The position numbers and the translations under genes are program-made. Under the pieces are notes generated by a model that worked only from the letters and a program-made list of their open reading frames with translations, was not told where the DNA came from and ran no database searches. Shown here piece after piece: positions 10,125 to 55,785 of a stretch of DNA of 64,000 nt (its first letter is position 1; the number at the start of each line of letters is the position of its first letter). Source of the stretch: an uncultured delta proteobacterium. Its GTDB lineage: Bacteria > Desulfobacterota > Desulfomonilia > Desulfomonilales > Desulfomonilaceae. The stretch is taken from NCBI GenBank assembly GCA_963747865.1, contig CAVVHK010000109.1, forward strand, positions 1-64,000. Reading direction: 5' to 3'.

Positions 10125-10164
10125 CTCCGGAGGGAAACTTCTTGAAAGAAGTTTCCCTCCGGAC
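10125..10164. repeat. REP-like palindrome family A: ctccggagggaaacttcttgaaagaagtttccctccggac
   Basis: Perfect palindrome lying 21 bp after the GHMP kinase stop. Confidence 0.8.
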
Positions 10165-10227
10165 CTCATAGGCGCTAACTTTTGACCTTGTCGGACGTGA
10201 TTTCAAATAGTTAACACAGGCGGAATC

Positions 10228-10299
10228 ACGTCGCCCCCGCGAAAGCGGGGGTCCAGAAGGTAATGAAAACACTGGATTCCCGCTTGCGCGGGAATGACG
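10228..10299. repeat. Double-hairpin repeat family C, left copy (gtcgcccccgcgaaagcgggggtccagaa...ctggattcccgcttgcgcgggaatgacg)
   Basis: Two GC-rich hairpins: cccccgcg-aaa-gcggggg and attcccgc-ttgc-gcgggaat. The reverse complement recurs at 11530..11600. Confidence 0.75.
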
Positions 10300-10593
10300 G
10301 CCTGGGTCATAACGAATCCCCAAGTTAGCGCTTATGCTCCCGGACCCTCCTTCAAGAACTTCCAAAATCGCGACGAGACTGGTCGAAATTCCGGAACATG
10401 AGGGCGCAACGATCTAATAAAGACATTTGCATCATTCGTTGTAACCGCCCGCGGTCATAGGTGTGCCTGTTAAACGTCGCCGAATCGGCGCGCTTCACTG
10501 AATCAGCGCAAACAACGCAAAGGAATTGTTGCTAACATGCGGGATGCGTGATAGAAAAAATGTAATTCAGGAATTGACGGGAGGAGTCTAGGA

Positions 10594-10824
10594 ATGTTCA
10601 AAAGGATTTTAGCCGTTTTTTTGGTTGCATGTTTTTGGATGATTACCGTCCCCGCTATTTCGGCCGAGCAATGGGTAGTCATAAAGGACTCCAAAGGCAG
10701 ATGCAGCGTTCGCACCACCACTAAGGGGAAAACCGCAAAAACCATAGCCGGTCCTTTCGCAACCAAACCCGAGGCCGAGAAGGCGAAAGCGGAAAAATGC
10801 GGAAAACCGGAGCAGAAAAAGTAA
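10594..10824 (+). CDS. Small secreted Lys-rich protein (signal peptide)
   Basis: RBS 'gggagg' 8 nt upstream. The N-terminus 'MFKRILAVFLVACFWMITVPAISA' is a Sec signal. A palindromic terminator-like element follows at 10854-10898. Confidence 0.45.
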   Translation: MFKRILAVFLVACFWMITVPAISAEQWVVIKDSKGRCSVRTTTKGKTAKTIAGPFATKPEAEKAKAEKCGKPEQKK

Positions 10825-10853
10825 CGAAACCAGCACTACTTTATTCGTAATCG

Positions 10854-10898
10854 TTCACCGGGAAATTCCTTTTTGCGCAAAAATTTCCTCCCGGTGAA
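10854..10898 (+). terminator. Palindrome family A variant acting as a likely terminator: ttcaccgggaaattcctttttgcgcaaaaatttcctcccggtgaa
   Basis: Lies 30 bp downstream of the stop at 10824. Long perfect stem. Confidence 0.5.
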
Positions 10899-10982
10899 CG
10901 CTTCCCTTTATTCAGACCTTTTGCGGCACAGGGCAAACTTGGGCTCGCGTTGCTCCGGCCAACACCCATCAGCCGCGCCGTC

Positions 10983-11288: not shown

Positions 11289-11529
11289 TGAATTCTCCAA
11301 TTTTCCGGGAAGATACGTCTGGATGGAAACTTCTAGGAAGAGGTTTCCATCCGGGGCGGCTTTCAATACTTTTAATATTATGACCCGACAGGCTGTTACT
11401 ACCAAACATGAGAGCACCGGCGCCGTGACCCGAAGCACGGCGGTTTTTTTCCGATCCCCATCCTTGTGGGGCAATACCGCTGACTTAAGGATCGAAAGCA
11501 GCCTTATGGGCCACGAATAGGTCGTCAGA

Positions 11530-11600
11530 CGTCATTCCCGCGGAAGCGGGAATCCAGTTCTTTTCGGAGTTTTCTGGACCCCCGCTTTCGCGGGGGCGAC
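11530..11600. repeat. Double-hairpin repeat family C, right copy (inverted relative to 10228..10299)
   Basis: cgtcattcccgcggaagcgggaatccag...ctggacccccgctttcgcgggggcgac is the reverse complement of the left copy. Confidence 0.75.
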
Positions 11601-11775
11601 GGCGCTACGTGAAGTCGTTAGCGAGATATTCCTTAAGTCACAAGCATTGATCCTTGGGGATGGGGGATCTAAACCGCCTCTCCAAACTTGGTGAGGCTCC
11701 GGTGCTGTGAACGGTTACGCGTATGCGTGTCACGAACAAATAGAGGCATTTTCATCATTGGCGCTGACCGCCTCA

Positions 11776-12369: not shown

Positions 12370-12409
12370 CCGCTTCTAAAGAGTATTTTGAACAAATCCA
12401 GGGAGTGAA

Positions 12410-14018: not shown

Positions 14019-14020
14019 GC

Positions 14021-16945: not shown

Positions 16946-18025
16946 TCATCTTGCGGAGTATTCCCTTATCAGATGAGCCACCTCGGCGTGTCCTCCGGCC
17001 AACGCCATTTTCAGAGCTGTTTTTCCATCATAAGCCTCAAAATTGGGGTTAGCTCCCTTCTTCAACAGCGATTTGACCATTTCAGTGTTTCCGTCGCCCG
17101 CCGCCTGCATTAGTGGAGTGCGATCAGAAGCGCTTTTAGCATTGGGATTTGCCCCGCTCTCCAAGAGGTAAGCGACAGCCTCATAATTTTTGCTTTCGAC
17201 CGCTTGCAGCAGAGCGGAACCCTGGGGGCTGTGCCTGTTCACATCGGCGCCGTGTTCAATGAGCAACCGAACCACCTCCGAATTGCCCCTGGAAGCAGCG
17301 TACATTAGCGGCGTGCGCCCGAGGGATGATGAATTCGCGTCAGCCCCATTGTCCAGCAACAGGCCGGCAATGCTTTCATTTCCGACCAACGCCGCCCAGA
17401 CCAGAGGGGCTCCCTTCTTGCCGGCCAGATTCACGTCCGCTCCGCGGTCAACCAATAGCTTGACCTCAGGCGTTGACGACCTGGCGGAGTAAAGGGCCAG
17501 GGGAGTCCATCCAAAGCGATCCACCGCGTTTATGTTTATTCCGTGCCGTATCAGAAATATCGAAGCATTGTCATAGCGGTTGCGGGAAGTGTAGAGTAGT
17601 AAGGGCCAACCTCCGGCGGCTGCGAAAAGCCAAAGGCAGACGGCGCCGAGGCCGAATGTGGCGACCAATATCATTGTCTTGGTTTTTGAGGCGGCCTTGC
17701 GCGTATCCGTCTGATGGGCGCAGGCTTGAATACTGTGGTAGCGGTAGATCAGGAGGGCCGCTGAAGGCGATAGGACAACAAGAACAAAAGATAATAGGCT
17801 CTTTATTCCCCACACTTCGCCGGCGTCTGTTGAGTGCCCCAAGGCCGCGGAAAGTAAAATGTAGAGACAAATTGGGATGTCCAGCAGAACCAGGCCGGCA
17901 AAGGCCACAAGCAGGCACTTGCGACCGAGCGGCTCTCCTCTGCGCGCATGCGCGACAGCCATAGAGCCGGCCCAAATCATGAGTCCGAAAGCCACCAACA
18001 AAATGGGCGAAAAGAACAGCAACAT
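16946..18025 (-). CDS. Membrane-anchored ankyrin-repeat protein
   Basis: About 4 N-terminal TM helices, then 6-7 ankyrin repeats ('GNTEMVKSLLKKGANPN...DGKTALKMALAGGHAEVAHLI'). Confidence 0.8.
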   Translation of the reverse strand: MLLFFSPILLVAFGLMIWAGSMAVAHARRGEPLGRKCLLVAFAGLVLLDIPICLYILLSAALGHSTDAGEVWGIKSLLSFVLVVLSPSAALLIYRYHSIQACAHQTDTRKAASKTKTMILVATFGLGAVCLWLFAAAGGWPLLLYTSRNRYDNASIFLIRHGININAVDRFGWTPLALYSARSSTPEVKLLVDRGADVNLAGKKGAPLVWAALVGNESIAGLLLDNGADANSSSLGRTPLMYAASRGNSEVVRLLIEHGADVNRHSPQGSALLQAVESKNYEAVAYLLESGANPNAKSASDRTPLMQAAGDGNTEMVKSLLKKGANPNFEAYDGKTALKMALAGGHAEVAHLIREYSAR

Positions 18026-25121: not shown

Positions 25122-25656
25122 ATCAGGCCCCTCCCTTAAGGAGTTGTTTTCTTCAATTAATCACTTCTGACTAGGAGTCAAGCGACAGATGCAAACATTG
25201 CCCGGCCGAGAAAAAAACCGCGTGATAGTTTACAGGGAGTCCCTTTTTGCACAAAAAAATATCCCTCACAGCGCCTCTGACTAGAAATCGATGCGCAATT
25301 TACTTTCAAATGGAAATGGTTGCGAGGTTTAGGCGATATGAGCTGCTCGATTCGGTGTTATTGTGCGCCTTACGCACTCGAACTGAGGTCCGAGGCTTAT
25401 TTCTGACGACGTAACATAGTGATATCAGCGGATTTCAATGCGGTCTTCCCATAATGGCGTTCGAGCCGCGGCAATGACACTTGCCCCGAAGCGATCCTGT
25501 GTGGTACGCTCGGTAAAATCATGCATCTTGATCTGGAAACTCAAACGCATATGTCCGGTATAGCGGTAACGCAAGCTCGGCATACCGTTGTCGGGACAGA
25601 CATTAATCCTAATGGGTCAACTATATCCGCACGTTAATACAATGATTGGAGGCGCC

Positions 25657-26284: not shown

Positions 26285-26323
26285 AAGCGGCCGCAACGCC
26301 TAAGAGTTTCAGGAGGAGTTTTC

Positions 26324-26357
26324 GGGGAGGTTTTTTCGCGCAAAGCGCCTCCCTGGA
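26324..26357. repeat. Degenerate family A palindrome (ggggaggttttttcgcgcaaagcgcctccctgg)
   Basis: Lies about 40 bp after the TPR stop. Same architecture as the other copies. Confidence 0.5.
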
Positions 26358-26603
26358 CTCGCAATAATGGTGACTTGAGAAAATTTGATGTGACGCAGCG
26401 GTTCCAGCCTGCGGTCAATTCGATTTTGAAATAGATAGGCTGGAAGGCCTGCCCCACGCAGGAAATTCAAAGTCTAACTCTTAAGTCGACAGTATTGCCC
26501 CAAACCTCTCCCCCAAAACTCGCATCATTGCAGCCGATTCCAGTGTGGGATTTTCGCAACTTCTTGTGCGATGGACGCGCGGACGCAAGGCTTGTGAGTA
26601 ACC

Positions 26604-26731
26604 ATTCAGTTATGAGCGGCGAATACCGAGATTGCTTTCCCGCGGAACGCGGGATTTCACTTCTCGCAATGACATTTGGACTTGTCTTTGCGAGCGGAGC
26701 GAAGCAATCTCCCGCGCGTAACTGAATGAAT
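26604..26731. repeat. Roughly 130-bp nested-palindrome element, family D copy 1
   Basis: About 93% identical to 34269..34399. Outer inverted repeat cattcagttatgagcg...cgcgcgtaactgaatg. Inner palindromes gagattgctt...aagcaatctc and ctcgcaa...ttgcgag. Confidence 0.8.
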
Positions 26732-26849
26732 AGGCTTGTAAAGCTGTCGTAAACATATATCACTCGGCTTCGGCATGTAATTTCTTTTCAACATTGTTTC
26801 TATTGTTTATTATTATAGTCTGAAATTATGACCGCATACAGGAGTGGGA

Positions 26850-28232
26850 ATGAATAACGAGAACGGCGCGTTTGTAAATATCAGTGGGGCGGCTGCGTTG
26901 CCTGTGTATCTGAAAGTCTTCTTCAAGGCCCTGTTCCTGATGTTTGACCGAGACAATGTCCGCATTAGAAAAGAGAGTAATATTAACGTAGTTGACACTC
27001 TGTTCAATTTCGTGAAACTGTCTTTCCTCCAGCGCACCATCTTAAGATACAGGCGAATGGTCAAAGCCCAAGACGCTGTGATCATGGACAGCACTTTTCC
27101 TCCGTATCCGTCTCCCGCGTTCGACAAGAGAATTGCCAATTACTTGAATCATCTGGACTTGACTGAATTGCCTTCGGGAATCGTATCCATTTCGACCACC
27201 AACTGCTGTCCCTATTCATGCGCTTTTTGTTCCACAAACGCGAAACGGAATCTGGATAGCGATCTGGATGAAGAGCTGCTCAAAACCACTATCACGGAAG
27301 TCGAGAACTTCGGGGTTCCTATGATAATCCTCCACGGTGGCGAGCCCTTCTACCGGTACGACCGCTTCTTGCGCCTGGTCAAACATGTGCGCAAGGAAAC
27401 TTGCTTGTGGATGTTTACCACAGGCTATGAGGTGACTCCGGAGAGGGCTCGGGAACTTAAGGACAACGGTTTGTTCGGCGTCTGGGTGAGCCTGGACCAC
27501 TATAAACCGGAAGTCCATAATCGACTTAGGGGACACGCCGAAGCCTTTGAAAACGCATGCAAGGCAGTGGAGAACTTCAAGAAAGCGGGAATTTACACTT
27601 GCCTTTCCCTGGTTCCCCCGGACGATTTCTTGATAAAGGAGAATTTCCTCAAATATTACGATCTGGCTAAAGAGCTGGGGGTCGCTGAGATCAGAGTGAT
27701 GGAGCGGAAGCCGTCCGGCCGCGAAGCGTGCCGTGGAGTAATTGCGCACAGCCCGATTTTAGAGCAGCTTCAGAAGGACTTGTATCACGACGAGAATTAC
27801 AAAGCCTATCCGCCTCTTAGCGGATTGTCCACCTGGTTGGAAAAGGACCCGGCTTTGGGGTGCCAGTGTAGGTTCGAGTATTTGTTTATAACCTCCACCG
27901 GCGAGGTTCAGCCTTGCGAAGCCTCCGAAATATCGTTTGGAAATATCACTCAAGAATCCTTTAAGACAATCTACAAGAGGGCCTGCCAAGCCTTTCCTCA
28001 TCCCGCCACCGGCTGCATACCCATGGTCATGTACTCTGAAGTAAGAGATTATCAAAAGATCAAGGACACCTTGGCTTCCAGCGAAAAGTCGGAGGTTTCC
28101 ACCAGGATCATGGCCGAGTTCCAGGCGAGAGGCTCAATACCCGGGGCTTATAAGCAAATATGGTCCATTTACGAGAAAAGGCTGAAGGCTTACAAGCAGC
28201 GAAAGGCTACGGCCGGGAGAGCCTTCTCATGA
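26850..28232 (+). CDS. Radical SAM protein (CX3CX2C) with a Cys-rich C-terminal auxiliary region. Substrate unknown.
   Basis: 'aggag' RBS 6 nt before the ATG at 26850. Canonical rSAM cluster 'CCPYSCAFCS'. 'ILHGGEPF' glycine-rich SAM motif. C-terminal Cys residues 'CQCRFEY...CEASEISFGNI...C'. Confidence 0.8.
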   Translation: MNNENGAFVNISGAAALPVYLKVFFKALFLMFDRDNVRIRKESNINVVDTLFNFVKLSFLQRTILRYRRMVKAQDAVIMDSTFPPYPSPAFDKRIANYLNHLDLTELPSGIVSISTTNCCPYSCAFCSTNAKRNLDSDLDEELLKTTITEVENFGVPMIILHGGEPFYRYDRFLRLVKHVRKETCLWMFTTGYEVTPERARELKDNGLFGVWVSLDHYKPEVHNRLRGHAEAFENACKAVENFKKAGIYTCLSLVPPDDFLIKENFLKYYDLAKELGVAEIRVMERKPSGREACRGVIAHSPILEQLQKDLYHDENYKAYPPLSGLSTWLEKDPALGCQCRFEYLFITSTGEVQPCEASEISFGNITQESFKTIYKRACQAFPHPATGCIPMVMYSEVRDYQKIKDTLASSEKSEVSTRIMAEFQARGSIPGAYKQIWSIYEKRLKAYKQRKATAGRAFS

Positions 28233-28238: not shown

Positions 28239-28390
28239 CCCTGGAGGGAAACTTCTTGAAAGAAGTTTCCCTCCAGGCCTCCCTTCAAGAACTTTCAATA
28301 TGGCTACGCATCAGCTTCTTATCCTCATCCCCCTGAAGGGGGGCAGTCTTCTCGGGTAGCCATGGGCGCAGCCCACGGTAGTCGACGAGC
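28239..28390. repeat. Composite MITE-like element, family B: family A palindrome + 'cccttcaagaactttcaatat' + G/C hairpins (ccccctgaaggggg; gccatgggcgcagcccacggtag)
   Basis: The same module order recurs at 46135..46275, and in reverse orientation at 47575..47859. Confidence 0.7.
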
Positions 28391-31067: not shown

Positions 31068-31461
31068 TGCAATGTGGCATAATTACGGTGTCGTATTCCG
31101 TCGATGATGCCCCGTCAGGGGCGCAAGAGGCTACTAATTTCATCTACGGCGCCCTGTGGAAATACGGTCAGGTATTCTTGATCAAGGCAGCGGGCAAGCG
31201 GGCAGTTACATAGGGTGCGGCGCCCAACAGGAACCGCATCGTTCGAGGTATAAATACCTAACCGTATTTGTGCCATAGACCACTAAGCGCTCCTTTTCAT
31301 AGAGGCGTTCGAAGTCTTTTCTCGACAGATGAGCTCCTCTTCAGGAGCCACATCCTAAGGGAACGAGAAAAGCCCCAACTCAGCGACACTGTTTTTACGA
31401 AAACGACCACTTATGGAAGCACGGTGGGGATCATTTGAGCAGCCAATATACCAGGAGTTTT

Positions 31462-31497
31462 TGGGGAAGGGACCGGGAAACCACTTTGCAAAAAGGG
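31462..31497. repeat. Family A palindrome variant (accgggaaaccactttgcaaaaaggggcttcccggt)
   Basis: Same stem consensus and tttgcaaaaa loop as the other copies. Confidence 0.6.
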
Positions 31498-31539
31498 GCT
31501 TCCCGGTAAACTATTACCTTCCACAGGCGGCGATGGCGT

Positions 31540-34268: not shown

Positions 34269-34399
34269 CTTTCAGTTATGAAGGGCGAATTCCGAGATTG
34301 CTTTCCCGCGGAAAGCGGGATTTCGCTCCTCGCAATGACATTTGGACTTGTCTTTGCGAGCGGAGCGAAGCAATCTCACGCACGTAACCGAATGAATAC
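34269..34399. repeat. Roughly 130-bp nested-palindrome element, family D copy 2
   Basis: About 93% identical to copy 1. It lies directly upstream of the oadG-like start. Confidence 0.8.
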
Positions 34400-34456
34400 C
34401 GCGCATTGCCTGAGCTTGACCGCGACTTAGGTAAGGGAGCGGACGCGGAGAGAATA

Positions 34457-34624
34457 ATGGACAATTTGACTTTTGGTGTGACTCTGATGCTAATCGGCAT
34501 GGGAGGAACCTTTCTTACACTGGCAATCATCATTCTTTTCACCAACCTGATCAAACATGCCTTTCCGGTTTTCGAGGCGCATGGCGGTCGTGAAAAGAAT
34601 AAAACCGAGGGCAGTTTAAAATGA
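34457..34624 (+). CDS. Small single-TM subunit, OadG-like (Na+-decarboxylase gamma-type)
   Basis: 55 aa, 'MDNLTFGVTLMLIGMGGTFLTLAIIILF'. 4-nt overlap with the downstream beta-subunit gene. Confidence 0.5.
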   Translation: MDNLTFGVTLMLIGMGGTFLTLAIIILFTNLIKHAFPVFEAHGGREKNKTEGSLK

Positions 34625-35770
34625 TCGAGAACGTGATCTACAGCTCCGCTGAACTCCTCACTGGAGTTCGCTTCCTGTTTACGCAGGGATGGCCCAATTT
34701 GATTATGATGTTTGCAGGATTTGGTCTTCTTTACCTGGCGATCCACAAGGAAATTGAGCCGTTACTCTTGCTTCCCATCGGTTTTGGGTGTGTGCTTGTT
34801 AACCTTCCGTTTTCGGAAGTTATGGACAAGCAAGGAGTGCTCAGGTTCTTTTACGATGTTGGCATAATTACGGAGATCTTTCCCTTACTGATTTTTGTCG
34901 GCATTGGCGCAATGACGGACTTCGGGCCACTTCTGGAAAATCCGAAGATCCTGCTGTTTGGCGCGGCCGGCCAGTTCGGTATCTTCATCACCCTACTACT
35001 AGCGCTTGCTCTTGGTTTTTCTAAGCTGGACGCTGTCTGCATCGGAATCATCGGCGCCTGCGACGGCCCGACCGCCATCTACGTGACCAGTCAGTACGCC
35101 CCTCATTTATTGGGACCGATATCTGTAGCAGCCTACTCTTATATGTCTCTTGTCCCCATAATTCAGCCTCCCATAATGGGACTTCTTACCTCGGAAAAAG
35201 AGAGAACCGTGCACATGGGAGCAGTGCGCGAGACTGTTTCCAGGAGGACAAGAATACTGTTTCCCCTTATGGTGACCGTGGTCACCGGCATAATTCGCTC
35301 CGAAGGGACTGCCGCTCATGGGAATGATAATGCTGGGGAATTTTATGAAGGAAAGCGGAGTGGTGGCAAGGCTTACCGGCTCGTCCGAGAACGAAGTCGC
35401 TAACACCGTAACTTTATTCTTGGGACTCGCCATCGGCGGAACCATGGAGGGCGGCAAGTTTTTGCGCCTTGAGACTTTGGGAGTCTTCAGCCTCGGGTTT
35501 GTGGCGATTTGTTTTGACACTGCCGCCGGGGTGCTCATCGGGAAATTTTGGTGTTGGCTTAGCGGCGGTAAGATTAATCCTTTGATCGGCGCCGCTGGGA
35601 TATCCGTGTACCCGATGGCCGTGCGGGTCGTTCAAGCCCAGGGCCAATTATACGATAAGAAGAACTTTCTACTAATGCATGCCATGGGAGCCAATACCGG
35701 CGGCCAGATAGGATCGGTCATGGCAGCCGCCATTATGCTCTCGCTTCTGAAAGGCATGGGGTTCATATAG
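34621..35770 (+). CDS. Na+-transporting oxaloacetate/methylmalonyl-CoA/glutaconyl-CoA decarboxylase beta subunit. It has one frameshift near 35290-35330.
   Basis: 'GFGCVLVNLPF', 'LLIFVGIGAMTDFGPLL...FGAAGQFGIF', 'IIGACDGPTAIY'. The continuation 'MGMIMLGNFMKESGVV...GAAGISVYPMA...GANTGGQIGSVMAA' is in another frame. Confidence 0.8.
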
Positions 35771-36640: not shown

Positions 36641-38554
36641 ATGCGAGAAGGTAGAATCCACAGACAGGTAGCGTTACTGCTGTTTGTTGCCGTATTCTTG
36701 TTAATGTCCGTTCATTCAGCTCCAGGTCAGGGTGTTCAGAGTTCTTCCTCTCCTAAAGGGAGCGAGCCGCCTCTGATGGGGGTAGTCAAGCGCATCCAAG
36801 GCGTTGCTACCGTGGCTCGTCCAGGCCAAGCCCCTATGACGATAAACGAGGGTTTCGCCATACATGTTGAGGACACCCTGCAGACTGCCGCCAATAGCAA
36901 AGCTTGGTGGAATCAGGCGCCGGCGGATTCTCCAGTCCCGGTGCTGTCAACCGGAAACGCTTCACTGGGGGAAAATTCCTCTTTTGAACTCATCAGATTC
37001 GATTCGCAAGGCGGAGCCGAGGCGTTCACAGGAGAGGTGGGCTCAGGCCTTGTTCGTTTCATCAAGAATATCCCCAATACCAGTCCTCAGCCGTCCTTCA
37101 CGATAACCACCCCCACTGCGCTGATCGAAGTGTTGCCCGCCGATAGACCGGCCGACTTCGTAGTGGAGGTGCGAAACCAGCAAATCTCCACGATTTATGG
37201 CATATGGGGCGCGGTCCGGGTGAGGAATATTTCCGACAAATTTACAGAGGAAAGAATTGTCAGGTCCTGTCAGAAGGTCGATGTGGAAGCGGACAAAGAG
37301 CCAGGCCCCGTCACCGGAGTTTCCCCCCAGACATTGAAGGACCTCATCACTCGGACTACCATCCCCAACACGCTGCCCGAAGACGTTCCATCTTGCGGAG
37401 AGGGCGGTCCTGTTCCATACGAGATCGAGGGTGTCCCTGAGGGCGAATACTGGCCTCCGCAGGGCGGATGCCCATGTCCCCCTAACCAGGAATGGGTGGG
37501 TTACGGATGCGCGCCCTGCCCATATTGGAAATTCTACGATCCATACACTTGCAGATGCGTTTCCCGGTGCCGAAGCGATTACAATTGTCCCAAATGCCAG
37601 CGCTGCGAAGATGGCCATTGTCGTCCAAAGCTGTGCCCGCCGGGCGAATGGCTCAATTACGAAACCTGTCGCTGCGAGAGAAAATGCGACAAACAATGCC
37701 CACCAGGTTCCTGGCTGAACCCGAAGACTTGCACGTGTGAGAAAGAGTGTCACAAGGAGTGTCCACCCGGCCAGTGGCTCAATCCCAAAACCTGCGAATG
37801 TGAGACCAAGTGCCAACGCACCTGCCCGCCGGGCCAAAAACTCGATCCTACCACGTGTACATGCAAACGAGCTTGTGACAAACAATGTCCGCCCGATCAG
37901 TGGCTGAATTACGCGACATGCCAGTGTATGCCGAGATGCAATCTCCAATGCCCGGAAGGTCAGATTCTAAACAGAGAATTGTGTAAATGCGAGGGTAGTA
38001 TCCCTGCGTGCAACAAGACTTGTCTTCCCGGCCAAAAACTCAACCGAGTCACTTGCACGTGTGAACGAGCCTGCGATAAGCAATGCCCGCCCGATCAATG
38101 GCTGAATTACTCGACATGTGAGTGCATTCCGAGATGTCATCTTCAGTGTCCGGAAGGTCAGTTCCTTAACAGGCGATCGTGCAAATGTGAAAGCAGGCCC
38201 ACGTGCAAGAAAACGTGTTCCTCTGGTTATCGGCTGGACCCCGTCAGTTGCCAATGCCTGGCGATTCCACAAATTGAAAAGAAGGTCATTCAAACAAAAG
38301 GTTGTAGATCTAACGCCGAGTGCGGCCCGGATAGCGTTTGCCGCAACGGAAACTGTATACCCATAATACGGCATGACACGACCAAGCCTTACTGGGAGCA
38401 CCCAAAGACGATCATTCAGGAGCCGCACCCCTGGCCCGGCTCTGAAGGCAAACCCAAGTTCAATATACCCAAGTCCGATATACCCAAGTCCGATATACCC
38501 AAGTTCAATGTGCCCAAGACAGATCAAACACCCTTTAGACAGCAATTACGGTGA
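36641..38554 (+). CDS. Secreted protein with a FecR-like N-terminal domain and about 10 tandem 21-22-aa cysteine-rich modules (CPPGxWLNxxTCxCxxxCxxx)
   Basis: Signal peptide 'VALLLFVAVFLLMSVHSAPG'. Repeats 'CPPGEWLNYETCRCERKCDKQ', 'CPPGSWLNPKTCTCEKECHKE', 'CPPGQWLNPKTCECETKCQRT' and others. A DNA-level ~198-bp tandem duplication lies at 37873..38070 / 38069..38230. The C-terminus carries 'IPKSDIPKSDIPKFNVPK' mini-repeats. Confidence 0.7.
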   Translation: MREGRIHRQVALLLFVAVFLLMSVHSAPGQGVQSSSSPKGSEPPLMGVVKRIQGVATVARPGQAPMTINEGFAIHVEDTLQTAANSKAWWNQAPADSPVPVLSTGNASLGENSSFELIRFDSQGGAEAFTGEVGSGLVRFIKNIPNTSPQPSFTITTPTALIEVLPADRPADFVVEVRNQQISTIYGIWGAVRVRNISDKFTEERIVRSCQKVDVEADKEPGPVTGVSPQTLKDLITRTTIPNTLPEDVPSCGEGGPVPYEIEGVPEGEYWPPQGGCPCPPNQEWVGYGCAPCPYWKFYDPYTCRCVSRCRSDYNCPKCQRCEDGHCRPKLCPPGEWLNYETCRCERKCDKQCPPGSWLNPKTCTCEKECHKECPPGQWLNPKTCECETKCQRTCPPGQKLDPTTCTCKRACDKQCPPDQWLNYATCQCMPRCNLQCPEGQILNRELCKCEGSIPACNKTCLPGQKLNRVTCTCERACDKQCPPDQWLNYSTCECIPRCHLQCPEGQFLNRRSCKCESRPTCKKTCSSGYRLDPVSCQCLAIPQIEKKVIQTKGCRSNAECGPDSVCRNGNCIPIIRHDTTKPYWEHPKTIIQEPHPWPGSEGKPKFNIPKSDIPKSDIPKFNVPKTDQTPFRQQLR

Positions 38555-39323: not shown

Positions 39324-39387
39324 CGGAAAACCGGATAATTGTGGGTCAAGTATTTCGTGTTCTTGTCATTCCAACAAATTTGGACAA

Positions 39388-39738
39388 ATGAAAGGATGGC
39401 GCCACATGAGCGAAAATGAAAAAGAAAGAAATCCAGAGGTTAATGAGACCGACGTTCCCGAATTGGACCCGAAGGTGGAATCGAGAAGAGAGTTTTTTTC
39501 CAGTCTAGGGAAATGGTCGAAAGTCGTAATCGCCGCGGTCGTTTTGGGCGAAGCGGTCGGCGCGCCTGAAGCCTCTTCGTATTGGAGCAACGGCGGTTGG
39601 CACAACGGTGGCTGGCATAACGGCGGTTGGCATAACGGCGGCTGGCACAATGGCGGCTGGTGGAATGGCGGTTGGAAAAACAAATGGAATAACGGCGGCT
39701 GGTATAATGGTGGTTGGTCCAACTACTACAGCAAATAA
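39388..39738 (+). CDS. Small Tat-signal peptide/protein with a C-terminal Gly/Trp repeat array (GGWHN x4, GGWWN, GGWKN, GGWYN, GGWSN). Candidate rSAM substrate.
   Basis: Twin-arginine motif 'SRREFFSSLG' plus h-region 'VVIAAVVLGEAVGAPEA'. The C-terminus is encoded by 15-bp tandem repeats (aacggcggctggcac...) spanning 39589-39725. The nearest downstream ORFs are a Cys-motif protein at 240 nt and a radical SAM/SPASM enzyme. Confidence 0.55.
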   Translation: MKGWRHMSENEKERNPEVNETDVPELDPKVESRREFFSSLGKWSKVVIAAVVLGEAVGAPEASSYWSNGGWHNGGWHNGGWHNGGWHNGGWWNGGWKNKWNNGGWYNGGWSNYYSK

Positions 39739-42232: not shown

Positions 42233-42694
42233 TTACTTGGCTCCTTTGGATTTCAGGATCTCGACAATCTTGGGACGTCCCGCTACCGTGGCCAGCATCA
42301 ACGCTGTGGCTCCGCCTTGATTCTTTGCATTGATGTCCGCGCCTTTTTCCAACAAATAGGTCACTATTTCCGCTTTATCTTTGGTCGCAGCCTCCATTAA
42401 AGCGGTCAAGCCCCGTTCGTTTTGAGCGTTGACTTGCGCCCCGTTTTCCACGAGCAACTTCACAACATCCAAATGGCCTTCTCGGGCCGTCTCGATCAGG
42501 ATTGTGTTGCCTTTACCGTCTTTGGTGTTGACGTCGGCGCCCTTGGCGATCAATTCTTTCACTTTACCGGCTTCCCCTTCCATCGCGGCCACGGTTAGGG
42601 AGTATTCCAACTCTCCGCCAAAAGCTTGGCCATAAACTATCCCGGAGAATAAGAGCGCCGTTAAGGCGACCACACAGGGTATACTTTTCCTCAT
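42233..42694 (-). CDS. Secreted ankyrin-repeat protein
   Basis: GGAGG RBS. Signal peptide 'MRKSIPCVVALTALLFSGIVYGQA'. Four ankyrin repeats ('GADVNTKDGKGNTILIETAREGHLDVVKLLVENGA...'). Confidence 0.8.
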   Translation of the reverse strand: MRKSIPCVVALTALLFSGIVYGQAFGGELEYSLTVAAMEGEAGKVKELIAKGADVNTKDGKGNTILIETAREGHLDVVKLLVENGAQVNAQNERGLTALMEAATKDKAEIVTYLLEKGADINAKNQGGATALMLATVAGRPKIVEILKSKGAK

Positions 42695-42943
42695 TGTTCC
42701 TCCAAAAAACAATGTCAATCTTGGGTATTGTTTAGGGCTAGAGAGAAATCCCCTTTTCTCCACAAGAAAGGTCAAGTCAGCCCCAAATTTCCGAGCCAAA
42801 TTCAGCCCACACTCCAGGAAATATACCACAAAACGTTCCGTATTTAAGCCGTCTTTTTGCAGTGGAGCCAAAATGACGTTGATGCGGAAAACAAACTCTC
42901 GTATTTAGAGACTACACTAATTTGTCAAACCACGGAGGAGACA

Positions 42944-43706
42944 ATGAATCAAGTCGATTTGTCCGGTAAAGTCGCTGTAGTCACCGGCGCCGGAAAGGGT
43001 ATAGGTAGAGCAATAGCCTTGGGCCTGGCCGGTTCGGGGGCGAAGGTCGTTTCTGGCTTCGAGGACTGAGCAGGACATTGAAGAAGTCGCAGGCGCCATA
43101 CGCGCCGCCGGAGGAGAGGCTCTTGCAAAAACGACCGATTTAATGCACAGTGACCAGATTAATGCGCTCGTGGACACCACCTTGAGCGCATACGGCGGGA
43201 TCGATATCCTGGTGAACAACGCTGCCCGAAGCTTCCTGAGGCCTCTCATCGATCTGCGGGAAGACGGATTTGACAAGATTTTCGCTACGAATGTGAAGGC
43301 TCCTTTCTTGCTGAGCCGTTCCGCGGCGAAGATAATGGCGTCGCGCGGTGGAGGTCGTATTGTCAATGTTACCACCATCGGGGCAGAGCGCGGCGGACCC
43401 ATGATGGGCGCTTATTATGCGAGTAAAGCCGCTCTCAAGATGCTAACCATGTGCATGGCCGTTGAGTGGGCGCCCATGAACGTGCTGGTAAACGCCGTGG
43501 GACCAGGGATGACTCGAACCCACTTTAGCGAACCTATCTGGTCGAACCCCGAGATCGAGAAACAAATAGTCACTAGGATTCCCCAGGGCAGATTAGCTGA
43601 TCCTGAGGATATAGTCGGCGCCGTGCTCTTCTTATGCTCAAGCGCCGCCGGATTTATTACCGGCCAGACTATTTATGTGGATGGCGGGGCTTTGGCCAAT
43701 TCGTAG
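42944..43706 (+). CDS. Short-chain dehydrogenase/reductase (SDR). It has one frameshift near 43060.
   Basis: '[28 protein letters not shown]' (TGxxxGxG). In a second frame: 'NAARSF', catalytic '[11 protein letters not shown]', 'PGMTRT'. Confidence 0.75.
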
Positions 43707-44893: not shown

Positions 44894-46096
44894 TTGCAGC
44901 CCATTGAGACATTGAAGCAGTTAAAGAAAATTAACATAGATTACTATGGCGGCGCTCACGCAGCCAGACAGCAGGGCAAGTTCATCGCGTACGTGAACGC
45001 CTTCACTCCGGTGGAGTTGCTGTACGCGATGGACATGATCCCGATATATCCGGAAAACCACGCTGTGATCCTGGGGGCGAGAAAGCTCTCGGCGGAAGTC
45101 GCCGGAGCCGCCGAAGGCATGGGCTATTCACCGGACTTGTGCTCGTACGCCCGCTGCGATCTTGGTTCCATAAAGACGGGACTAAGCCCCACTTGGGGAT
45201 TGCCCAAGCCTGATCTCATAGTAATTTCAAATAGTCAGTGCGGCACCCTGACCAAATGGTTCGAAGTGCTGAGCAGGCTATACAAGGCGCCCATGTTCCT
45301 GATCGATGTCCCGCATTCGGGCGAAGGGGAGCCGGATCAGGCGGGCGAAAAATACGTGCGAGGCCAACTCGAAGACCTTGTGGCGGTGGTGTCAAAAATT
45401 ACCGGAAAAAATCTGGACCAAAATCGTCTCGCGGATACGATAGCCTTGTCCAGGGAGGCTTCGGCGCTTTGGACAAAGGTGCTGGAGGCAGGGTCGGCAA
45501 GACCAACTCCTATGACGGTCTTTGACCAGTTTATCTCAATGGCGCCGATCGTGGCCCAAAGGGGAACAATGGTCCCTGTGGATTTCTATCGGGATCTACT
45601 CACCGAACTGGAACAGCGGGTCGAAAAAGGGATCGGGGCATGCGCCCAGGAGAAGTTCAGACTCTTCTGGGATAATTTGCCGATTTGGCCGGAGCTCCGG
45701 AGATTATCGGAGTTTTTGGAAGACCACGGGGCCGCCCTTGTAACATCTTTGTACACATGGGCCTGGGCGAGATTGTCGGTAGGCCTGGAAGACCCGATCG
45801 GAGATTGGACCAAGCAGTATCTGTACACCGCTAACCTGCATTTGAAACGCCGAGCCACGGAATATATTGAATTTGCCGAGAAATACCAACTGGACGGGTT
45901 TCTGTATCATTCAAATCGTAGCTGCAAGTTCGTTTCTCAAGACATTCCCGAGGTAAGACGGATTGTCACTGACAAAACAGGCATACCAGGGGTAATACTC
46001 GAAGCCGACCATAACGACCCTCGACTTTATACGATCGAATCGCTGGAAACGCAGATAGAAAGTTTCCTGGAGCTTCTCGCCGACAGGAAGAAGTAG
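44894..46096 (+). CDS. 2-hydroxyacyl-CoA dehydratase / benzoyl-CoA reductase family subunit (HgdA/BcrC-like)
   Basis: 'CSYARCDLG', 'ISNSQCGTLTKWFEVL' and 'YHSNRSCKF' are the conserved cysteines of the HgdA/HadB alpha subunits. It sits adjacent to its partner subunit. Confidence 0.7.
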   Translation: MQPIETLKQLKKINIDYYGGAHAARQQGKFIAYVNAFTPVELLYAMDMIPIYPENHAVILGARKLSAEVAGAAEGMGYSPDLCSYARCDLGSIKTGLSPTWGLPKPDLIVISNSQCGTLTKWFEVLSRLYKAPMFLIDVPHSGEGEPDQAGEKYVRGQLEDLVAVVSKITGKNLDQNRLADTIALSREASALWTKVLEAGSARPTPMTVFDQFISMAPIVAQRGTMVPVDFYRDLLTELEQRVEKGIGACAQEKFRLFWDNLPIWPELRRLSEFLEDHGAALVTSLYTWAWARLSVGLEDPIGDWTKQYLYTANLHLKRRATEYIEFAEKYQLDGFLYHSNRSCKFVSQDIPEVRRIVTDKTGIPGVILEADHNDPRLYTIESLETQIESFLELLADRKK

Positions 46097-46134
46097 AAAG
46101 GGGCGGCATACCGTAAGAGCTCAAAGAGGAATTG

Positions 46135-46275
46135 CCGGAGAGAAACTTCTTGGAAGAAGTGTCCCTCCAGACCCCCCTTCAAGAGCTTCCAATATTGCCG
46201 GCACGAGGTTTCCGATTCCCTCCCCCGAAGCGGGGAGTCCCATTGAGTAGCCATGGGTGAAACCCATGGAGAGGA
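46135..46275. repeat. Composite MITE-like element, family B (family A palindrome ccggagagaaacttcttggaagaagtgtccctccag + ccccttcaagagcttccaatat + cccccgaagcgggg + gtagccatgggtgaaacccatgg)
   Basis: Same module order as 28239..28390. Confidence 0.7.
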
Positions 46276-47574: not shown

Positions 47575-47859
47575 CTTCGGGGTCGAAGACGGGATCTGTT
47601 GCTGTTCGCTTCCATGGGCTCAGCCCATGGCTACCCAAGGAAGAACGTCCCTTCAGGACGTCAAAGCCGTAAAGGCCCTGCCCCACAACAAATCGGCTTA
47701 AGTCACAAGAATTGAGGCCTGGGGTGGGGCTCCCCTGAAGTGGACGGCGCTTATACCGGGAAGCGCTGTAAACCCGTTGGTCCGTTGATCCGATTGCTGG
47801 AGTTTTTTGAAGGAGGGTCCGGGAGGAAACCTTTTTGTGCAAAAGAGGTTTCCTCCCGG
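47575..47859. repeat. Composite family B element in reverse orientation, ending in the family A palindrome ccgggaggaaacctttttgtgcaaaagaggtttcctcccgg (47819..47859)
   Basis: ccgcttcggggtc...ccatgggctcagcccatggctac matches reverse complements of the 28.3 kb and 46.2 kb modules. Confidence 0.65.
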
Positions 47860-47876
47860 ATAAATCTTGCCGCTTT

Positions 47877-53180: not shown

Positions 53181-54694
53181 TTCCGCCTCCCTGGAAAAGT
53201 CTTGGCAATCGCAAGGGCCCGTTTCATGGCCTCGGCTTTTTTGATGGTTTCCTCGAATTCCCGCTCCGGGACGGAATCGGCGACTATCCCGGCTCCGGCT
53301 TGAAAGTAGGCGTTGGCGCCTTTCAGCATCACGGTTCGGATAGTGATTCCCATATCCATGGAACCGGAGTACGAGAAGTAACCCACACAACCACCGTATG
53401 GGCCTCTCCTGTCGGGTTCCAGATCCTCGATAATTTCCATGGCCCGGATCTTGGGCGCTCCGGACAAAGTGCCTGCCGGGAAAGTGGCCCTCAGAAGGTC
53501 GTAAGCGTCGTATCCTTCCGCAGGAATTGCTTTGACGTTGCTGACCATGTGCATTACGTGGGAGTATTTCTCTACCGTCTTGAACGCGTCCACAACTACG
53601 GTTCCAGGCTTCGCTATGCGGCCCAGGTCGTTCCGGGCCAAATCCACAAGCATCACGTGTTCAGCAAGTTCTTTCGAGTCCTTCAGCAGGTCTTCTTCAA
53701 GCGCCGCGTCAGCCTCGGGCGCCTTAGCCCTGGGACGTGTCCCGGCAATGGGCCGGACCACCGCTTCTCCGTTGCGCAGCCGGACCATGACTTCGGGGGA
53801 TGAGCCTGCCAGGACTTCATCATCGGCCTTGATGAAAAACATGTACGGAGATGGATTGATCGTCCTCAGACCGCGGTAAATGCTCAAAGGGTCGTGATTA
53901 AAGTTGCCCTGGAAGCGCTGTGAAAGGACCACTTGGATTATGTCGCCGGCCTTAATGTGATCTTTGGCCTCGAGCACCATGTTCTCGAATTGCTCTTGGC
54001 TCATGTTGGACACGAAAGTGGAACCGTCGGGGTCCGGCGCCGAACAAAGAGGGGGCGCAGGCGCGTCAAGCTTGCTGCGAAGCCTTTCAAGTCGGGCGCA
54101 GCCATCCGCGTAGGCGGTCGAAGTTGAATCGAACTCGTCTGGCCTCACCATGGTGGTTAGGATTATTTTGTGGAGGAAGTTATCAAAGATGAGGAGATCG
54201 CGAGTGATCATGAAACAGGCTTCAGAGAAACCCGGATCCGGTCTGTGTAAATCGGGAAGCCGTTCGAAGCCTCTGACCACGTCGTAGGAAAAGAACCCTA
54301 CTGCGCCTCCATAGAATTCCGGGCAGTCATCGAATTCGGCGGGGGTAAAAGAGGCCATCACCTGTTTCACAAATTCCGCCGCGTCCGACACTCCATTGAC
54401 CGTCGTGGTTTCTCCTCCTGCGGTAACACGCGCGATCCCATCGCGAATCCTGATTAAGGAATGAGGGTCTGATCCCAGAAAGGAATACCTGGCCCATCTT
54501 GTCCCTCCCTCAACGCTTTCCAAAAGAAAGCCGGCTCTGGAATCATCTATCTTCATGAACGCGGATAATGGAGTGTCCATATCCCCGGGAATTTCCATAA
54601 CGATCGGAATCAGGTTGCCGTGACTGCATAGAGTATCGAAGGTGTTGAAATCCGGCTTGATCATGAGCATTTCCTTTTGATAACCGCTGCGCAT
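53177..54694 (-). CDS. trpE: Anthranilate synthase component I
   Basis: The chorismate-binding domain '[17 protein letters not shown]' and overall TrpE similarity. Confidence 0.9.
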
Positions 54695-55084
54695 TGTTTC
54701 TGGACCTTAGGGTAGAGCTCCGCTTGAGGCTCTCTTCCACCTCTCAGGTCAAGACGCAGGATTTTGAAATTCTTCCTTGCAGGAAGGGGCAATGTATCGG
54801 GTACGATTTCAAGACGTTTCACTGTGTTGTAACCTTATAACTAAGCGACTTAACTATGTTTTATAGTTGCCTGATGGAGAACAAAGATCCAGTGTCACGG
54901 ATGGATGCGCCCCGCCTTATGGAATTGAGCCGGACTCAATTCCCTTACATGCTTACTTGTTGAATGTGGGCCTTATTTGGACTCCCGAAGCCGCTCTTCA
55001 AATGTTCTTTGTCTCCTAGCGGCTTTCAAAAGGCATTTGCCCTGATGAATGGTCGGGAGGCGACAAGCTGACTTCATAAACGCA

Positions 55085-55120
55085 AAAAAGCCATGAGCGA
55101 TCTGCCCATGGCTTTTGTTA
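55085..55120. terminator. Bidirectional rho-independent terminator-like hairpin (gccatgagcgatctgcccatggc flanked by A/T runs)
   Basis: aaaaaagccatgagcgatctgcccatggcttttgtt. It would terminate the minus-strand SCP2 gene and isolates the trp operon leader. Confidence 0.5.
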
Positions 55121-55285
55121 ACGATCTAATTGAGTTGTCAGTTAGCCGTCGCTAGGCAGACCTCCCGTGTTGTTTTCTCCAGCGCCACCACCAATTTCTT
55201 AGGCTGTTGATTTTACACATAGTCGTCTACCTTTTGTCTCAGGTTACATGAACCCCATTTAATTGTCAACAATTATTTCGTTCAA

Positions 55286-55615
55286 TTATGACATCGGAAA
55301 TAGAGACGGGATCCTTTGAGCAGCCATTATATCTCCGGTGGCCCGGAGTTTACCGGTCATAAACGCCGTCATGCCGTTGAGCTGGCCGTTACACATGGCA
55401 AGCCAGTCCACGTCAACCATACTTAGAGTCACATTCGGGCCGGCATGCACACCTTTGCTGACTGAGCATGCGCCGTCCTGAACGCTCACATTCCATTCGC
55501 CCGCTTGGGCGCCGGAAATACTGAATTGGTAAATCAAGTTCAATCCTGCCGCTGCGGCAGCGTTAAATACCTGAGGCATTTTTTCGAAAACTTCTTCAAC
55601 TGAAGTGAATCCCAT
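55286..55615 (-). CDS. SCP2 (sterol-carrier-protein-like) domain protein
   Basis: 'AAAAAGLNLIYQFSISG...TAFMTGKLRATGDIMAAQRI' matches the SCP2 fold. Confidence 0.6.
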   Translation of the reverse strand: MGFTSVEEVFEKMPQVFNAAAAAGLNLIYQFSISGAQAGEWNVSVQDGACSVSKGVHAGPNVTLSMVDVDWLAMCNGQLNGMTAFMTGKLRATGDIMAAQRIPSLFPMS

Positions 55616-55749
55616 TTCTACTCCTTCTAGGGCTAAATTCAATCAACTATTCAGTCGGTCGCCGCAATGACACAGGCGACAACTGAGCATCACCGCCACT
55701 TTATTGCACAAAATGGAAACAAGTGAAAGCTTTTTTGGTAAGCGTTCGT

Positions 55750-55785
55750 CGGGAGGAAACTCATTTGTGCAAAAGGGTTTCCCGG
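55750..55785. repeat. Family A palindrome (cgggaggaaactcatttgtgcaaaagggtttcccgg)
   Basis: Lies just downstream of the HtrA stop. Confidence 0.7.

Follow-up and report, generated by a model that had tools for sequence, protein, structure and literature searches.

A 64,000-nt stretch of DNA from an uncultured delta proteobacterium of the family Desulfomonilaceae (contig CAVVHK010000109.1, positions 1 to 64,000; here called the window, to whose numbering all copy coordinates refer) contains a family of similar hairpins, several of them lying just past the end of a gene, which raises the question of what kind of element the hairpins belong to and what they may do there. An initial annotation had described eleven of them as REP-like perfect palindromes. 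The hairpin is found to be one part of a longer unit, a dispersed and oriented repeat of about 60–70 nt. Read along the upstream gene’s own strand, the unit consists, in order, of a purine-rich 5′ arm, a short loop, a pyrimidine-rich 3′ arm, a linker of 1–6 nt and a tail of about 20 nt; a typical 5′ arm is GGAGGGAAA-CTTCTT, a typical 3′ arm AAGAAG-TTTCCCTCC and a typical tail CCTCCCTT-CAAGAAC-TTT. Taken in the same 5′-to-3′ direction as the 5′ arm, the tail is its complement, and hence the mirror image of the 3′ arm. Judged by this layout, the family is a potential intrastrand-triplex repeat, akin to the BoxC/PIT/TMECO repeats and differing from them in topology.

A stem-loop of the kind described is present at all 11 sites listed initially (7310, 10125, 10854, 25233, 26324, 28239, 31462, 34168, 46135, 47819 and 55750), and a twelfth copy, absent from that list, lies at 11321 (unit 11317–11382). 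Only two of the palindromes are perfect (10126–10163 and 28240–28277, with 18-nt arms that are 100 % complementary); the others carry 1–3 mismatches or bulges, and the stem at 47818–47860, for example, is 95 % complementary over 19 nt. The start coordinate first given for the family, 10125, excluded its own first copy at 7310. The remark that the arms vary while their pairing is preserved is borne out in 67 related copies, in which 97.7 % of cells are paired, compensatory changes occur in 15 of 16 pairs and double-change cells number 188 as against 41 in shuffles. The window hairpins exceed chance: against 30 first-order Markov simulations there are 11 perfect stems of at least 9 bp where about 2.4 are expected, and the longest stem is 18 bp as against 11 bp in the simulations. 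A 10-mer motif search allowing 2 mismatches was uninformative (92 matches, 78 expected). Copies 10857 and 55750, together with a fragment at 32348, constitute a subfamily B with a differing flank (GAACGCTTACC), and three or four copies in all can be counted as divergent in this way; the mirror tail is absent from the subfamily B copies at 10854–10918 and 55718–55787.

The element extends about 25 nt past the palindrome and does so on one side only, a feature that the initial annotation had not noticed. Direct-repeat analysis showed that 28273–28308, 46167–46202 and 10340–10375 have CC(N)CCCTTCAAGAACTTYCAATAT in common after the stem, while at 47818, 31472 and 34168 the tail sequence stands on the left as its reverse complement, so that those copies point the opposite way. 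Conservation ends 3 nt past the tail (..CAAGAAC-TTT) and none is seen upstream of the stem. With a covariance model of hairpin plus tail, the clear window copies score 56–82 bits on one strand and 24–44 bits on the other; since the window copies also trained the model, these scores do not by themselves establish orientation. The anatomy of an oriented, mirror-tailed repeat can be stated with high confidence.

Genomes, one per species, were scanned with the palindromic arms alone (GGAGGGAAAC-N8-14-GTTTCCCTCC), the flank being excluded from the query. The scan returned at least 112 loci; hosts among the matches listed include Christensenellaceae, several Clostridia, Desulfovibrio, Bilophila, Mailhella, Desulfovibrionales, Thermodesulfobacteriota, ‘delta proteobacterium’ metagenome-assembled genomes (MAGs) and others; cultured carriers such as Bilophila wadsworthia and Nitratidesulfovibrio are represented. 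The window-type tail recurs beside many of these arms-only matches (for example GGAGGGAAACTTCTTGAAAGAAGTTTCCCTCC..CACTCCCTTCAAGAACTTTG on a Clostridia contig), and among the matches listed 33 of 107 hairpins have, on exactly one side, a mirror tail scoring higher than the 99th percentile for random flanks, while 2 have one on both sides. Metagenomes were scanned with a pattern that fixes the inner hairpin and inner tail only (CTTCTTRRAAGAAG-N14-30-CAAGAAC) and leaves the outer arms and outer tail free, which yielded 80 unique copies. In all, the mirror-tailed unit is represented by more than 100 copies in metagenomes and genomes of several phyla. No match to the unit was found in the plasmid and phage collections scanned, and the viral-contig scan gave 2 matches only. 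The closest relatives noted are copies in an uncultured ‘delta proteobacterium’ MAG, to which the window copies are 86–88 % similar; the recR gene of the window matches that of a different uncultured ‘delta proteobacterium’ MAG at 69 %. None of the loci fetched overlaps the window, and three look-ups by exact protein sequence returned no match.

Across the 80 metagenome copies the tail scores 300.5 against the parallel complement of the 5′ arm and 79 against a direct copy of the 3′ arm, and copy by copy the mirror relation wins over the direct repeat 69 times and loses 6 times. When tails are permuted among copies the score falls to 185 ± 10 (z = 11.2). Mutual information lies on the parallel diagonal and not on the anti-diagonal, linking arm position i with tail position i − 1 at 0.25–1.1 bits, G with C and A with T. 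Parallel arm–tail ‘pairs’ were also counted in 67 model-aligned copies, with 500 shuffles and slid registers as controls. Columns 6–9 with 56–59 are 91.1 % complementary as against 79.5 % when shuffled (reached in 0/500), with 23 double changes as against 6, and slid registers give 45–80 %. A second set of columns is 84.3 % complementary as against 73.5 %, with 25 double changes as against 9.1; the inner segment is 98.1 % complementary, with C:G in 55 and U:A in 8 copies at one position. All three sets beat 500 of 500 shuffles in cells paired, both-side changes and covariation score, and also beat every slid register.

The same rule can be followed from one arm type to the next. Outer 5′ arms of the form GGAGGGAA are accompanied by the tail CCTCCCTT, GGGAGGAA by CCCTCCTT, GGGGGAGGGAA by CCCCCTCCCTT, GGGGAGAAAAA by CCCCTCTTTT, GGAA by CCTT, AGAA by TCTT, GGGGGGAAA by CCCCCCTT and GGGAGAAA by CCCTCTT; inner 5′ arms CTTCTT, CTTTTTT and T7 are accompanied by AAGAAC, AAAAAAC and A7, respectively. 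Because TTCTT and T-runs are themselves mirror-symmetric, asymmetric inner arms were examined, and all of them obey the mirror and not the inverted rule (TTCTTT with AAGAAA, TCTTT with AGAAA, TTTTCT with AAAAGA, CTTTCTT with AAAGAA and CTCTTTTG with CAGAAAAC). These variants rule out that the tail directly repeats the 3′ arm or serves the 5′ arm as an alternative Watson–Crick partner. Where the strict complement is not kept, the triplets are still canonical: close to the junction C stands opposite C–G pairs, and A–T pairs are faced by A or TA. A pseudoknot between loop and tail (GAAAG with CTTTC) was also discarded, as no covariation links the loop type to the bases past the tail.

In the window, seven copies lie 7–38 nt past a same-strand stop codon, so that the distance of 20–50 bp proposed initially was roughly right. 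The genes that they follow encode an FtsX-like permease (7310), a GHMP kinase (10126), a radical SAM/SPASM protein (28240), an unnamed open reading frame (ORF) product (31472), an HGD-D family protein (46135), TrpA, at the end of the trp operon (47818), and an HtrA-like protein (55750). The proposed position 3′ of genes, between convergent or tandem genes, is likewise supported; 10857, 11321 and 25233 adjoin no credible gene end, and 26324 and 34168 follow doubtful small ORFs. Plus- and minus-strand copies alternate along the window, following the local gene, and because orientation flips with that gene it appears to be tied to transcription and not to the direction of replication. The placement of public copies was taken from the nearest feature within 60 nt, with crude ORF calls. 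On that basis the metagenome copies have a co-oriented gene end on the hairpin side in 32 cases, as against a tail-side gene end in 8 and gene starts in 10, with a median stop-to-hairpin distance of 25 nt. Among the matches listed, the genome loci have a hairpin-side co-oriented gene end in 16 cases, a tail-side gene end in 4 and gene starts in 2, and the upstream gene is co-oriented at 29 loci versus 6. Overall, the copies stand 3–50 nt past the stop of a co-oriented gene.

A purine block, a Watson–Crick pyrimidine block and a mirror-image third block, in that order, make up the design of the intrastrand ‘paper-clip’ triple helix, and the unit carries all three on one strand, the pyrimidine block being antiparallel to the first and the third block Hoogsteen-compatible. 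Under the triplet polarity rules summarized by Holder et al. (2015; PMC4666352), the purines of the outer segment would be those of the 5′ arm, with the tail parallel to it and offering C for G–C and T for A–T (pyrimidine motif). In the inner segment (TTCTT/AAGAA) the purines would be those of the 3′ arm, with the tail antiparallel to it and offering A and G (purine motif), and the third strand would switch strands halfway along the hairpin. The opposite DNA strand reads reverse-Hoogsteen block, purine arm, pyrimidine arm; in the nomenclature of Holder et al. (PMC4666352) the coding strand of the unit belongs to class III and its template strand to class I. A third-strand design is favoured because template copying cannot give rise to a mirror repeat and nothing about a protein would make it prefer one; it is difficult to account for covariation in parallel register, across arm variants and distant phyla, other than by contact of the third strand with the helix, in Hoogsteen or reverse-Hoogsteen triplets.

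Because copies lie so shortly past a co-oriented stop codon, the unit is probably transcribed as the end of the upstream gene’s message. In the transcript it would form a long hairpin as a 3′-end structure, perhaps with the tail held in the groove as a clamp, and pyrimidine-motif intrastrand triplexes can form in RNA (PMC4666352). Such a structure may block 3′-to-5′ exonucleases, cause RNA polymerase to pause with no U-tract, or both, much as REP elements are held to stabilize upstream mRNA, and the copies would multiply as a non-autonomous repeat. That the family is a gene-end, sense-oriented repeat of intrastrand-triplex design that serves as a 3′-end structure is the reading preferred here, tentatively and at slightly less than an even chance. 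Formation of the triplex in vivo together with a role as 3′-end barrier or stabilizer is possible, though doubtful. The fullest version, a natural alternate-strand intrastrand triple helix that is kept by selection and acts as a U-tract-independent barrier ending or protecting transcripts at gene 3′ ends, is somewhat unlikely; selection on that fold is suggested because the parallel-register covariation spans many arm types and several bacterial phyla.

Several variants of the unit were met in other genomes. Gut-metagenome loci (e.g. L115, L120, L136, L150 and L186) form a very uniform subfamily with extra conserved flanks (GCCCCAAACCCCGC-TTAGGAAA..hairpin..tail..AAGCAAGGGGATTTT), in which CCCC/GGGG runs could close an outer helix around the entire unit. 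An Eubacteriales MAG holds a tandem array with a 156-nt period (locus L080, 1794–2245), three copies alternating with hairpins of a second type (GCGGGGGAAACTTTTTGGGAGAAAAGCTTTCCCCCGC). Two facing pairs, tails inward and about 200 nt apart, lie at 2909–3245 and 4080–4436 in a ‘delta proteobacterium’ MAG (locus L060), and the two pairs are unlike in their inner 200 nt; the first is accounted for by two convergent genes, while the + copy of the second has no co-oriented upstream gene. A second, unrelated repeat family with the same arms (GGAGGGAAACCC..GGGTTTCCCTCC) was also seen (L004, L015, L017–L019, L022, L024, L028 etc.; Aminicenantes and ‘Eubacteriales’ MAG CAZIDN). It has a linker of about 20 nt with the palindrome GCGAAGCGATCGCTTCGC, then a mirror-type pyrimidine block CCTCCTTTCC, which suggests that a triplex design may recur in independent repeat families.

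Motifs for intrastrand triplexes abound in prokaryotes (PMC4666352), and the nearest known relatives in design are the BoxC/PIT/TMECO repeats of Escherichia coli and further Proteobacteria (Hoyne & Maher, 2000; Holder et al., 2015; PMC4666352). Like these, the window family consists of short multi-copy intergenic repeats with three consecutive blocks on one strand, the third of Hoogsteen type. It further resembles TMECO in its GGGAGG/CCCTCC-like runs, in a complementary strand with the complementary triplex class, in occurring sometimes as facing pairs and in having no known transposase. TMECO has the pattern CCCTCNCCC-N3-6-GGGNGAGGG-N3-GGGNGAGGG and, as an isolated strand, forms a stable triplex in vitro (PMC4666352). 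Its Py-loop-Pu core (CCCTCNCCC-N3-6-GGGNGAGGG, the third block omitted) has 0 matches on either strand of the window. TMECO is class II (pyrimidine, purine, reverse-Hoogsteen block) with loops of 3–6 nt, whereas the window family would be class III or class I according to strand, and in place of its first loop stands a self-paired inner stem of 14–16 nt that the third strand would track through the switch of motif. The search tool ITxF accepts stems of 6–15 nt with at most 1 mismatch and two loops of 1–6 nt each; the outer block (8–11 nt) and the linker (1–6 nt) of the family fall within these limits and the 14–16-nt spacer does not, so that ITxF would miss the units. The placement also differs: TMECO shows no strand or orientation bias, is commoner upstream of ORFs and is associated with local genomic instability (PMC4666352), whereas the window family is sense-oriented past stop codons (nearest feature 32/50 and 16/22 in the public sets, and the seven window copies). 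Its hosts, Clostridia, Christensenellaceae, Desulfovibrionales, Thermodesulfobacteriota and ‘delta proteobacterium’ MAGs, not Enterobacteria, span a far wider range. The family thus departs from TMECO in block order, in the paired inner stem with its predicted strand switch, in host range and in the sense placement at gene ends; the principle and the G-rich composition are common to both.

Two further systems offer analogies. Designed ‘paper-clip’ and alternate-strand triplex oligonucleotides, reportedly made by Sklenar and Feigon in 1990 and by Beal and Dervan in 1992, have the same succession of purine, loop, pyrimidine, loop and third strand, and one third strand reads both purine runs through two motifs; those designs are DNA oligonucleotides, whereas the window family is a natural genomic repeat whose fold is predicted. 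RNA triple-helix elements that stabilize 3′ ends (ENE with poly(A), MALAT1-type) are eukaryotic or viral, have mostly U.A–U triplets and an A-rich tail, and their structures have been solved. There too a 3′ tail lies in the major groove of an upstream helix and protects the transcript end, a likeness of mechanism only, since the triplets predicted here are rich in C+.G–C and half of them need the purine motif.

A number of observations weigh against the preferred reading of a sense-oriented, triplex-forming 3′-end structure. Degenerate tails occur in window copies 11321, 34168 and 26324 and subfamily B lacks a tail altogether, so a copy can persist without one. Copies in the same genome are related by descent and cell counts overstate the number of independent events, for which reason the argument rests on many distinct arm types each obeying the mirror rule. 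The orientation rule is strong and not absolute, at about 75–80 %, and the ORF calls behind it were crude. In RNA or on the coding strand, runs of C+.G–C, which need protonation, would make up the outer triplets, and a full-length triplex implies DNA, because its inner half depends on the purine motif and that motif reportedly fails to form in RNA (PMC4666352). In sense orientation the isolated stem mismatches are A:C in 14 cases and G:T in 4, which does not favour the sense strand, and 8 of 10 imperfect window hairpins fold 2–7 kcal/mol better on the antisense strand. BoxC/PIT, moreover, has neither terminator nor promoter activity in E. coli and leaves no triplex footprint in vivo (PMC4666352). 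Several of these points speak for an element that acts at the DNA level only, a transient hairpin-plus-third-strand fold in single-stranded DNA, best on the template strand, that either obstructs polymerases or promotes rearrangement, or has no host function and is a selfish repeat tolerated at gene ends. On the template strand the triplets would be G.G–C (outer) and T.A–T (inner), both feasible at neutral pH, and the failure of the purine motif in RNA, the mismatch asymmetry (14:4) and the window energies (8:2 antisense) all point the same way, as does a tail that follows the 3′ arm 14 times and the 5′ arm 6 times, with 26 ties. Holder et al. tie TMECO to genomic instability with no expression role (PMC4666352), copy 10126 has itself been struck by another insertion, and copy number is high and host range wide. 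However, a neutral or DNA-level element should not hold a sense preference of about 4:1 directly past stop codons; in the window the orientation flips with the local gene and not with replication direction, and the template strand is hardly ever single-stranded across 60 nt. The strand tests (wobble asymmetry, folding energies, arm followed by the tail) are also weak and inconsistent between data sets, the energy comparison in the public sets being mixed at 23:16 and 5:9. A purely DNA-level element is judged somewhat unlikely. The orientation rule favours a fold in RNA or the coding strand, whereas triplet chemistry and mismatch asymmetry favour DNA and rather the template strand.

The remaining explanations fare worse. 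The initial annotation had proposed intrinsic terminators, and ordinary, independently evolved Rho-independent terminators of similar look would have strong stems directly past stop codons, as here, where one copy closes the trp operon. On the upstream gene’s strand, though, all copies lack a U-tract; the stems are followed by C-rich sequence (CCTCCC..), and the only terminator-like call, 28277–28240, falls on the other strand. Across the window terminator-like sites are about as frequent as expected by chance (19 vs 15.4 expected; 16 vs 16.5 expected), two copies are intercistronic (46135 and 55750), and loop, arms and 25 nt of flank common to the copies mark a repeat family. A textbook bidirectional intrinsic terminator does stand at 55086–55116 (AAAAGCCATGAGC..GCCCATGGCTTTT, with an A-run and a T-run), after an SCP2-like gene, and is unrelated in sequence to the family; the organism thus does use canonical terminators. 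Hardly any credence is given to the hairpins being such terminators. Of the proposed dispersal as a mobile REP-like element, the dispersed repeat family and the broadly REP-like placement stand, while membership among REP elements moved by a REP-associated tyrosine transposase (RAYT) is unsupported. REP, BIME and REPIN elements are imperfect palindromes of 30–45 nt, intergenic, typically at gene 3′ ends and thought to stabilize upstream mRNA. The window family agrees with them in palindrome size, in being short, imperfect, multi-copy and extragenic, in its scatter and in its 3′-end position, and the facing pairs at L060, in a related genome, also count in its favour, the first of them being accounted for by convergent genes. 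Against classical REP/REPIN elements mobilized by RAYT, a very unlikely identity, no 5′ tetranucleotide is conserved (in 80 copies, positions −1 to −15 before the stem carry no more than 0.22 bit) and the conserved, co-varying flank is a 3′ mirror tail that lies outside the REP model. Neither a RAYT/Y1 nor any other transposase domain was found by Pfam among the roughly 50 ORFs of the window, the only region so scanned, and near-identical sequence is shared across phyla where REPs are usually species-specific. Nor is the unit an ordinary miniature inverted-repeat transposable element (MITE), as no direct-repeat signal at any offset (at most 4/78 for 3-mers) and no target-site duplication was detected around 78 copies, and apart from the hairpin it contains no inverted repeat. 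A site bound by a protein or small RNA, with an incidental mirror relation, would suit a tail that is C/U-rich, single-stranded in ordinary folding and furnished with CCUCC-like runs whose reverse complement resembles a Shine–Dalgarno sequence. But arms and tails vary widely (TTAGGAAA/CCTT, AAAGAAA/TCTT, GGGGGGAAA/CCCCCCTT) and change together in parallel register, which neither a fixed protein site nor an anti-Shine–Dalgarno mimic would impose, and strand polarity gives a protein no mirror preference; this explanation is highly improbable.

Other identities were considered and set aside. A Shine–Dalgarno/anti-Shine–Dalgarno relation (GGAGG arms, CCUCC tail) was rejected as the arms vary to TTAGGAAA, AAAGAAA, GAGAACCC and others, with the tail following, and a promoter in the tail was rejected as the spacing of TTCAAG..CAATAT is unfit for sigma-70 and promoter-like sites are at chance level. 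At the gathering score Rfam finds only a tRNA-Leu in the window, and permissive Rfam scans of two copies gave only sub-threshold matches to microRNA-type hairpins. A literature search on the sequence strings returned unrelated primers only and no paper describing the family.

The best example of the unit is at 28239–28305 (+), where a perfect 18-bp hairpin at 28240–28277 (CCTGGAGGGAAACTTCTT ga AAGAAGTTTCCCTCCAGG) is followed by the tail at 28278–28305 (CCTCCCTTCAAGAACTTTCAATATGG); it scores 81.8 bits as against 43.9 on the other strand and begins 7 nt past the stop of the radical-SAM/SPASM gene 26844–28232. At 46133–46199 (+) the hairpin 46135–46172 and tail 46173–46199 (CCCCCCTTCAAGAGCTTCCAATATTG) score 75.6 vs 31.5 bits in an intercistronic position, 37 nt past the stop of the HGD-D-family gene 44894–46096 and 54 nt before an SMR-transporter ORF. 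About 60–70 nt beyond these two copies lie similar stretches at 28341–28378 and 46232–46269 (..GTAGCCATGGGCGCAGCCCACGG / ..GTAGCCATGGGTGAAACCCATGG, 74 % identical) with a small hairpin, the latter just upstream of the SMR-transporter ORF and with no Rfam match. The copy at 47790–47861 (−) has its hairpin at 47818–47860 (TCCGGGAGGAAACC..) and its tail at 47790–47817 (CCCTCCTTCAAAAAACTCC), scores 71.5 vs 35.1 bits and lies 16 nt past the trpA stop, closing a minus-strand trpE-GD-(C)-F-B-A operon. At 7310–7376 (+) the hairpin 7310–7347 (CCGGAAGGAACC..GCTTCCCCTCGG) and tail 7348–7376 (ACCCTTCTTGAAAAAACTC..) score 61.7 bits on the plus and 25 on the minus strand, 38 nt past the stop of the FtsX-like permease gene 6313–7272, which is convergent with recR. 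The copy at 31444–31508 (−; hairpin 31472–31507, ACCGGGAAGCCCCTTT..; tail 31444–31471, CCCTTCCCCAAAAACTCC..) scores 56.1 bits and lies 32 nt past the stop of ORF 31540–31950.

The other copies are interrupted or degenerate. At 10126–10166 (+) the perfect 18-bp hairpin 10126–10163 stands 22 nt past the stop of the GHMP-kinase gene 9082–10104, and its tail is interrupted after 3–4 nt (CCT/C) by an inserted 170-nt element. The displaced 3′ part lies to the right of the insertion at 10337–10370 (+; ..CTCCCGGA CCCTCCTTCAAGAACTTCC; 33.4 bits), with the tail proper at 10345–10363, of the CCCTCC type that matches GGGAGG arms. The insertion itself (10167–10336) is MITE-like, with terminal inverted repeats CATAGGCGCTAAC / GTTAGCGCTTATG, and holds two G+C hairpins (CCCCCGCGAAAGCGGGGG and GGATTCCCGCTTGCGCGGGAATGAC) that recur in reverse order at 11528–11600, within a related stretch 11528–11625. 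At 11317–11382 (+) the hairpin 11318–11355 (GGATGGAAACTTCT..) is followed by a degenerate tail of which only TTTCAATAC is retained; it scores 65.2 bits. The copy at 34138–34206 (−) likewise retains only TTCAAAAACTC of its tail beside a hairpin with 2 mismatches (34168–34204; 59.6 bits), and that at 26290–26357 (−) has a hairpin at 26321–26357 and a weak tail (GAAAACTCCTCCTGAAACTC) at 26290–26320, 3′ of the doubtful ORF 26467–26763. At 25233–25268 a degenerate hairpin CAGGGAGTCCCTTTTTGCACAAAAAAATATCCCTCA has no recognizable tail and its strand is undefined. In subfamily B, the bulged hairpin at 10854–10918, tentatively on the plus strand (TTCACCGGGAAATTCC..TTTCCTCCCGGTGAA, then CGCTTCCC), scores 8.5 bits. 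The copy at 55718–55787 (−), with hairpin 55750–55785 and then ACGAACGCTTACCAAAAAAGC, scores 9.9 bits, 12 nt past the stop of the HtrA-like gene 55799–56974 and 76 nt before the SCP2 gene; the fragment at 32348–32395 (−; GGTAAGCGTTCGCCGGGAGGCGACTCTTTTGTGAAA..) has 86 % identity to 55737–55772.

Further repeats are present in the window. A 135-nt repeat whose ends are inverted (TTCAGTTAC.. / ..CATAACTGAA) and which has the hairpins CTCGCAATGACATTTGGACTTGTCTTTGCGAG and ATCCCGCG..CGCGGGA inside it occurs at 26598–26732 and 34264–34398 with 93 % identity, each time inside a doubtful small ORF (26467–26763 and 34276–34746) that is then followed by a hairpin-family copy, and a related GTCATTGC..GCAATGAC hairpin is found at 60395–60419. 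An in-frame 15-nt tandem repeat at 39583–39722, seven copies of TGGCAYAACGGYGGY, overlaps ORFs 39388–39738 (+) and 39366–39722 (−) and on the plus strand would encode an NGGWH-like pentapeptide repeat; four copies of the 15-nt ACCCAAGTYCRATAT at 38452–38526 end the gene of a 637-aa CXCXC-repeat protein. Two ankyrin-repeat proteins, uncommon in free-living bacteria, are encoded at 16946–18025 and 42233–42871, and a fragment of an Eco57I-type restriction-modification methylase at 849–1919. Several genes seem split or truncated (7502–8051, 34621–35770, 43143–43706 and 57231–59363): recR and the oxaloacetate decarboxylase beta subunit each fall into two ORFs, a short-chain dehydrogenase begins at profile position 55, and a penicillin-binding protein lacks the start of its transglycosylase domain. 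These could be assembly frameshift errors or pseudogenes.

BoxC/PIT/TMECO repeats have been known for 25 years with no evidence that a triplex matters in vivo, and Holder et al. found neither a footprint nor an effect on expression (PMC4666352). Covariation in parallel register, in many arm variants and distant phyla, would be the previously missing evidence that such folds are selected, and sense placement directly past stop codons would tie the fold to transcription. If the fullest version of the reading is true, the family would provide the first comparative, covariation-type evidence for a functional bacterial triplex fold and represent a gene-end signal of a new class. Anaerobes of gut and sediment carry the units in abundance, and Rfam, terminator finders and the ITxF rules all miss them; a covariance model for them would improve gene-end annotation in metagenome-assembled genomes.

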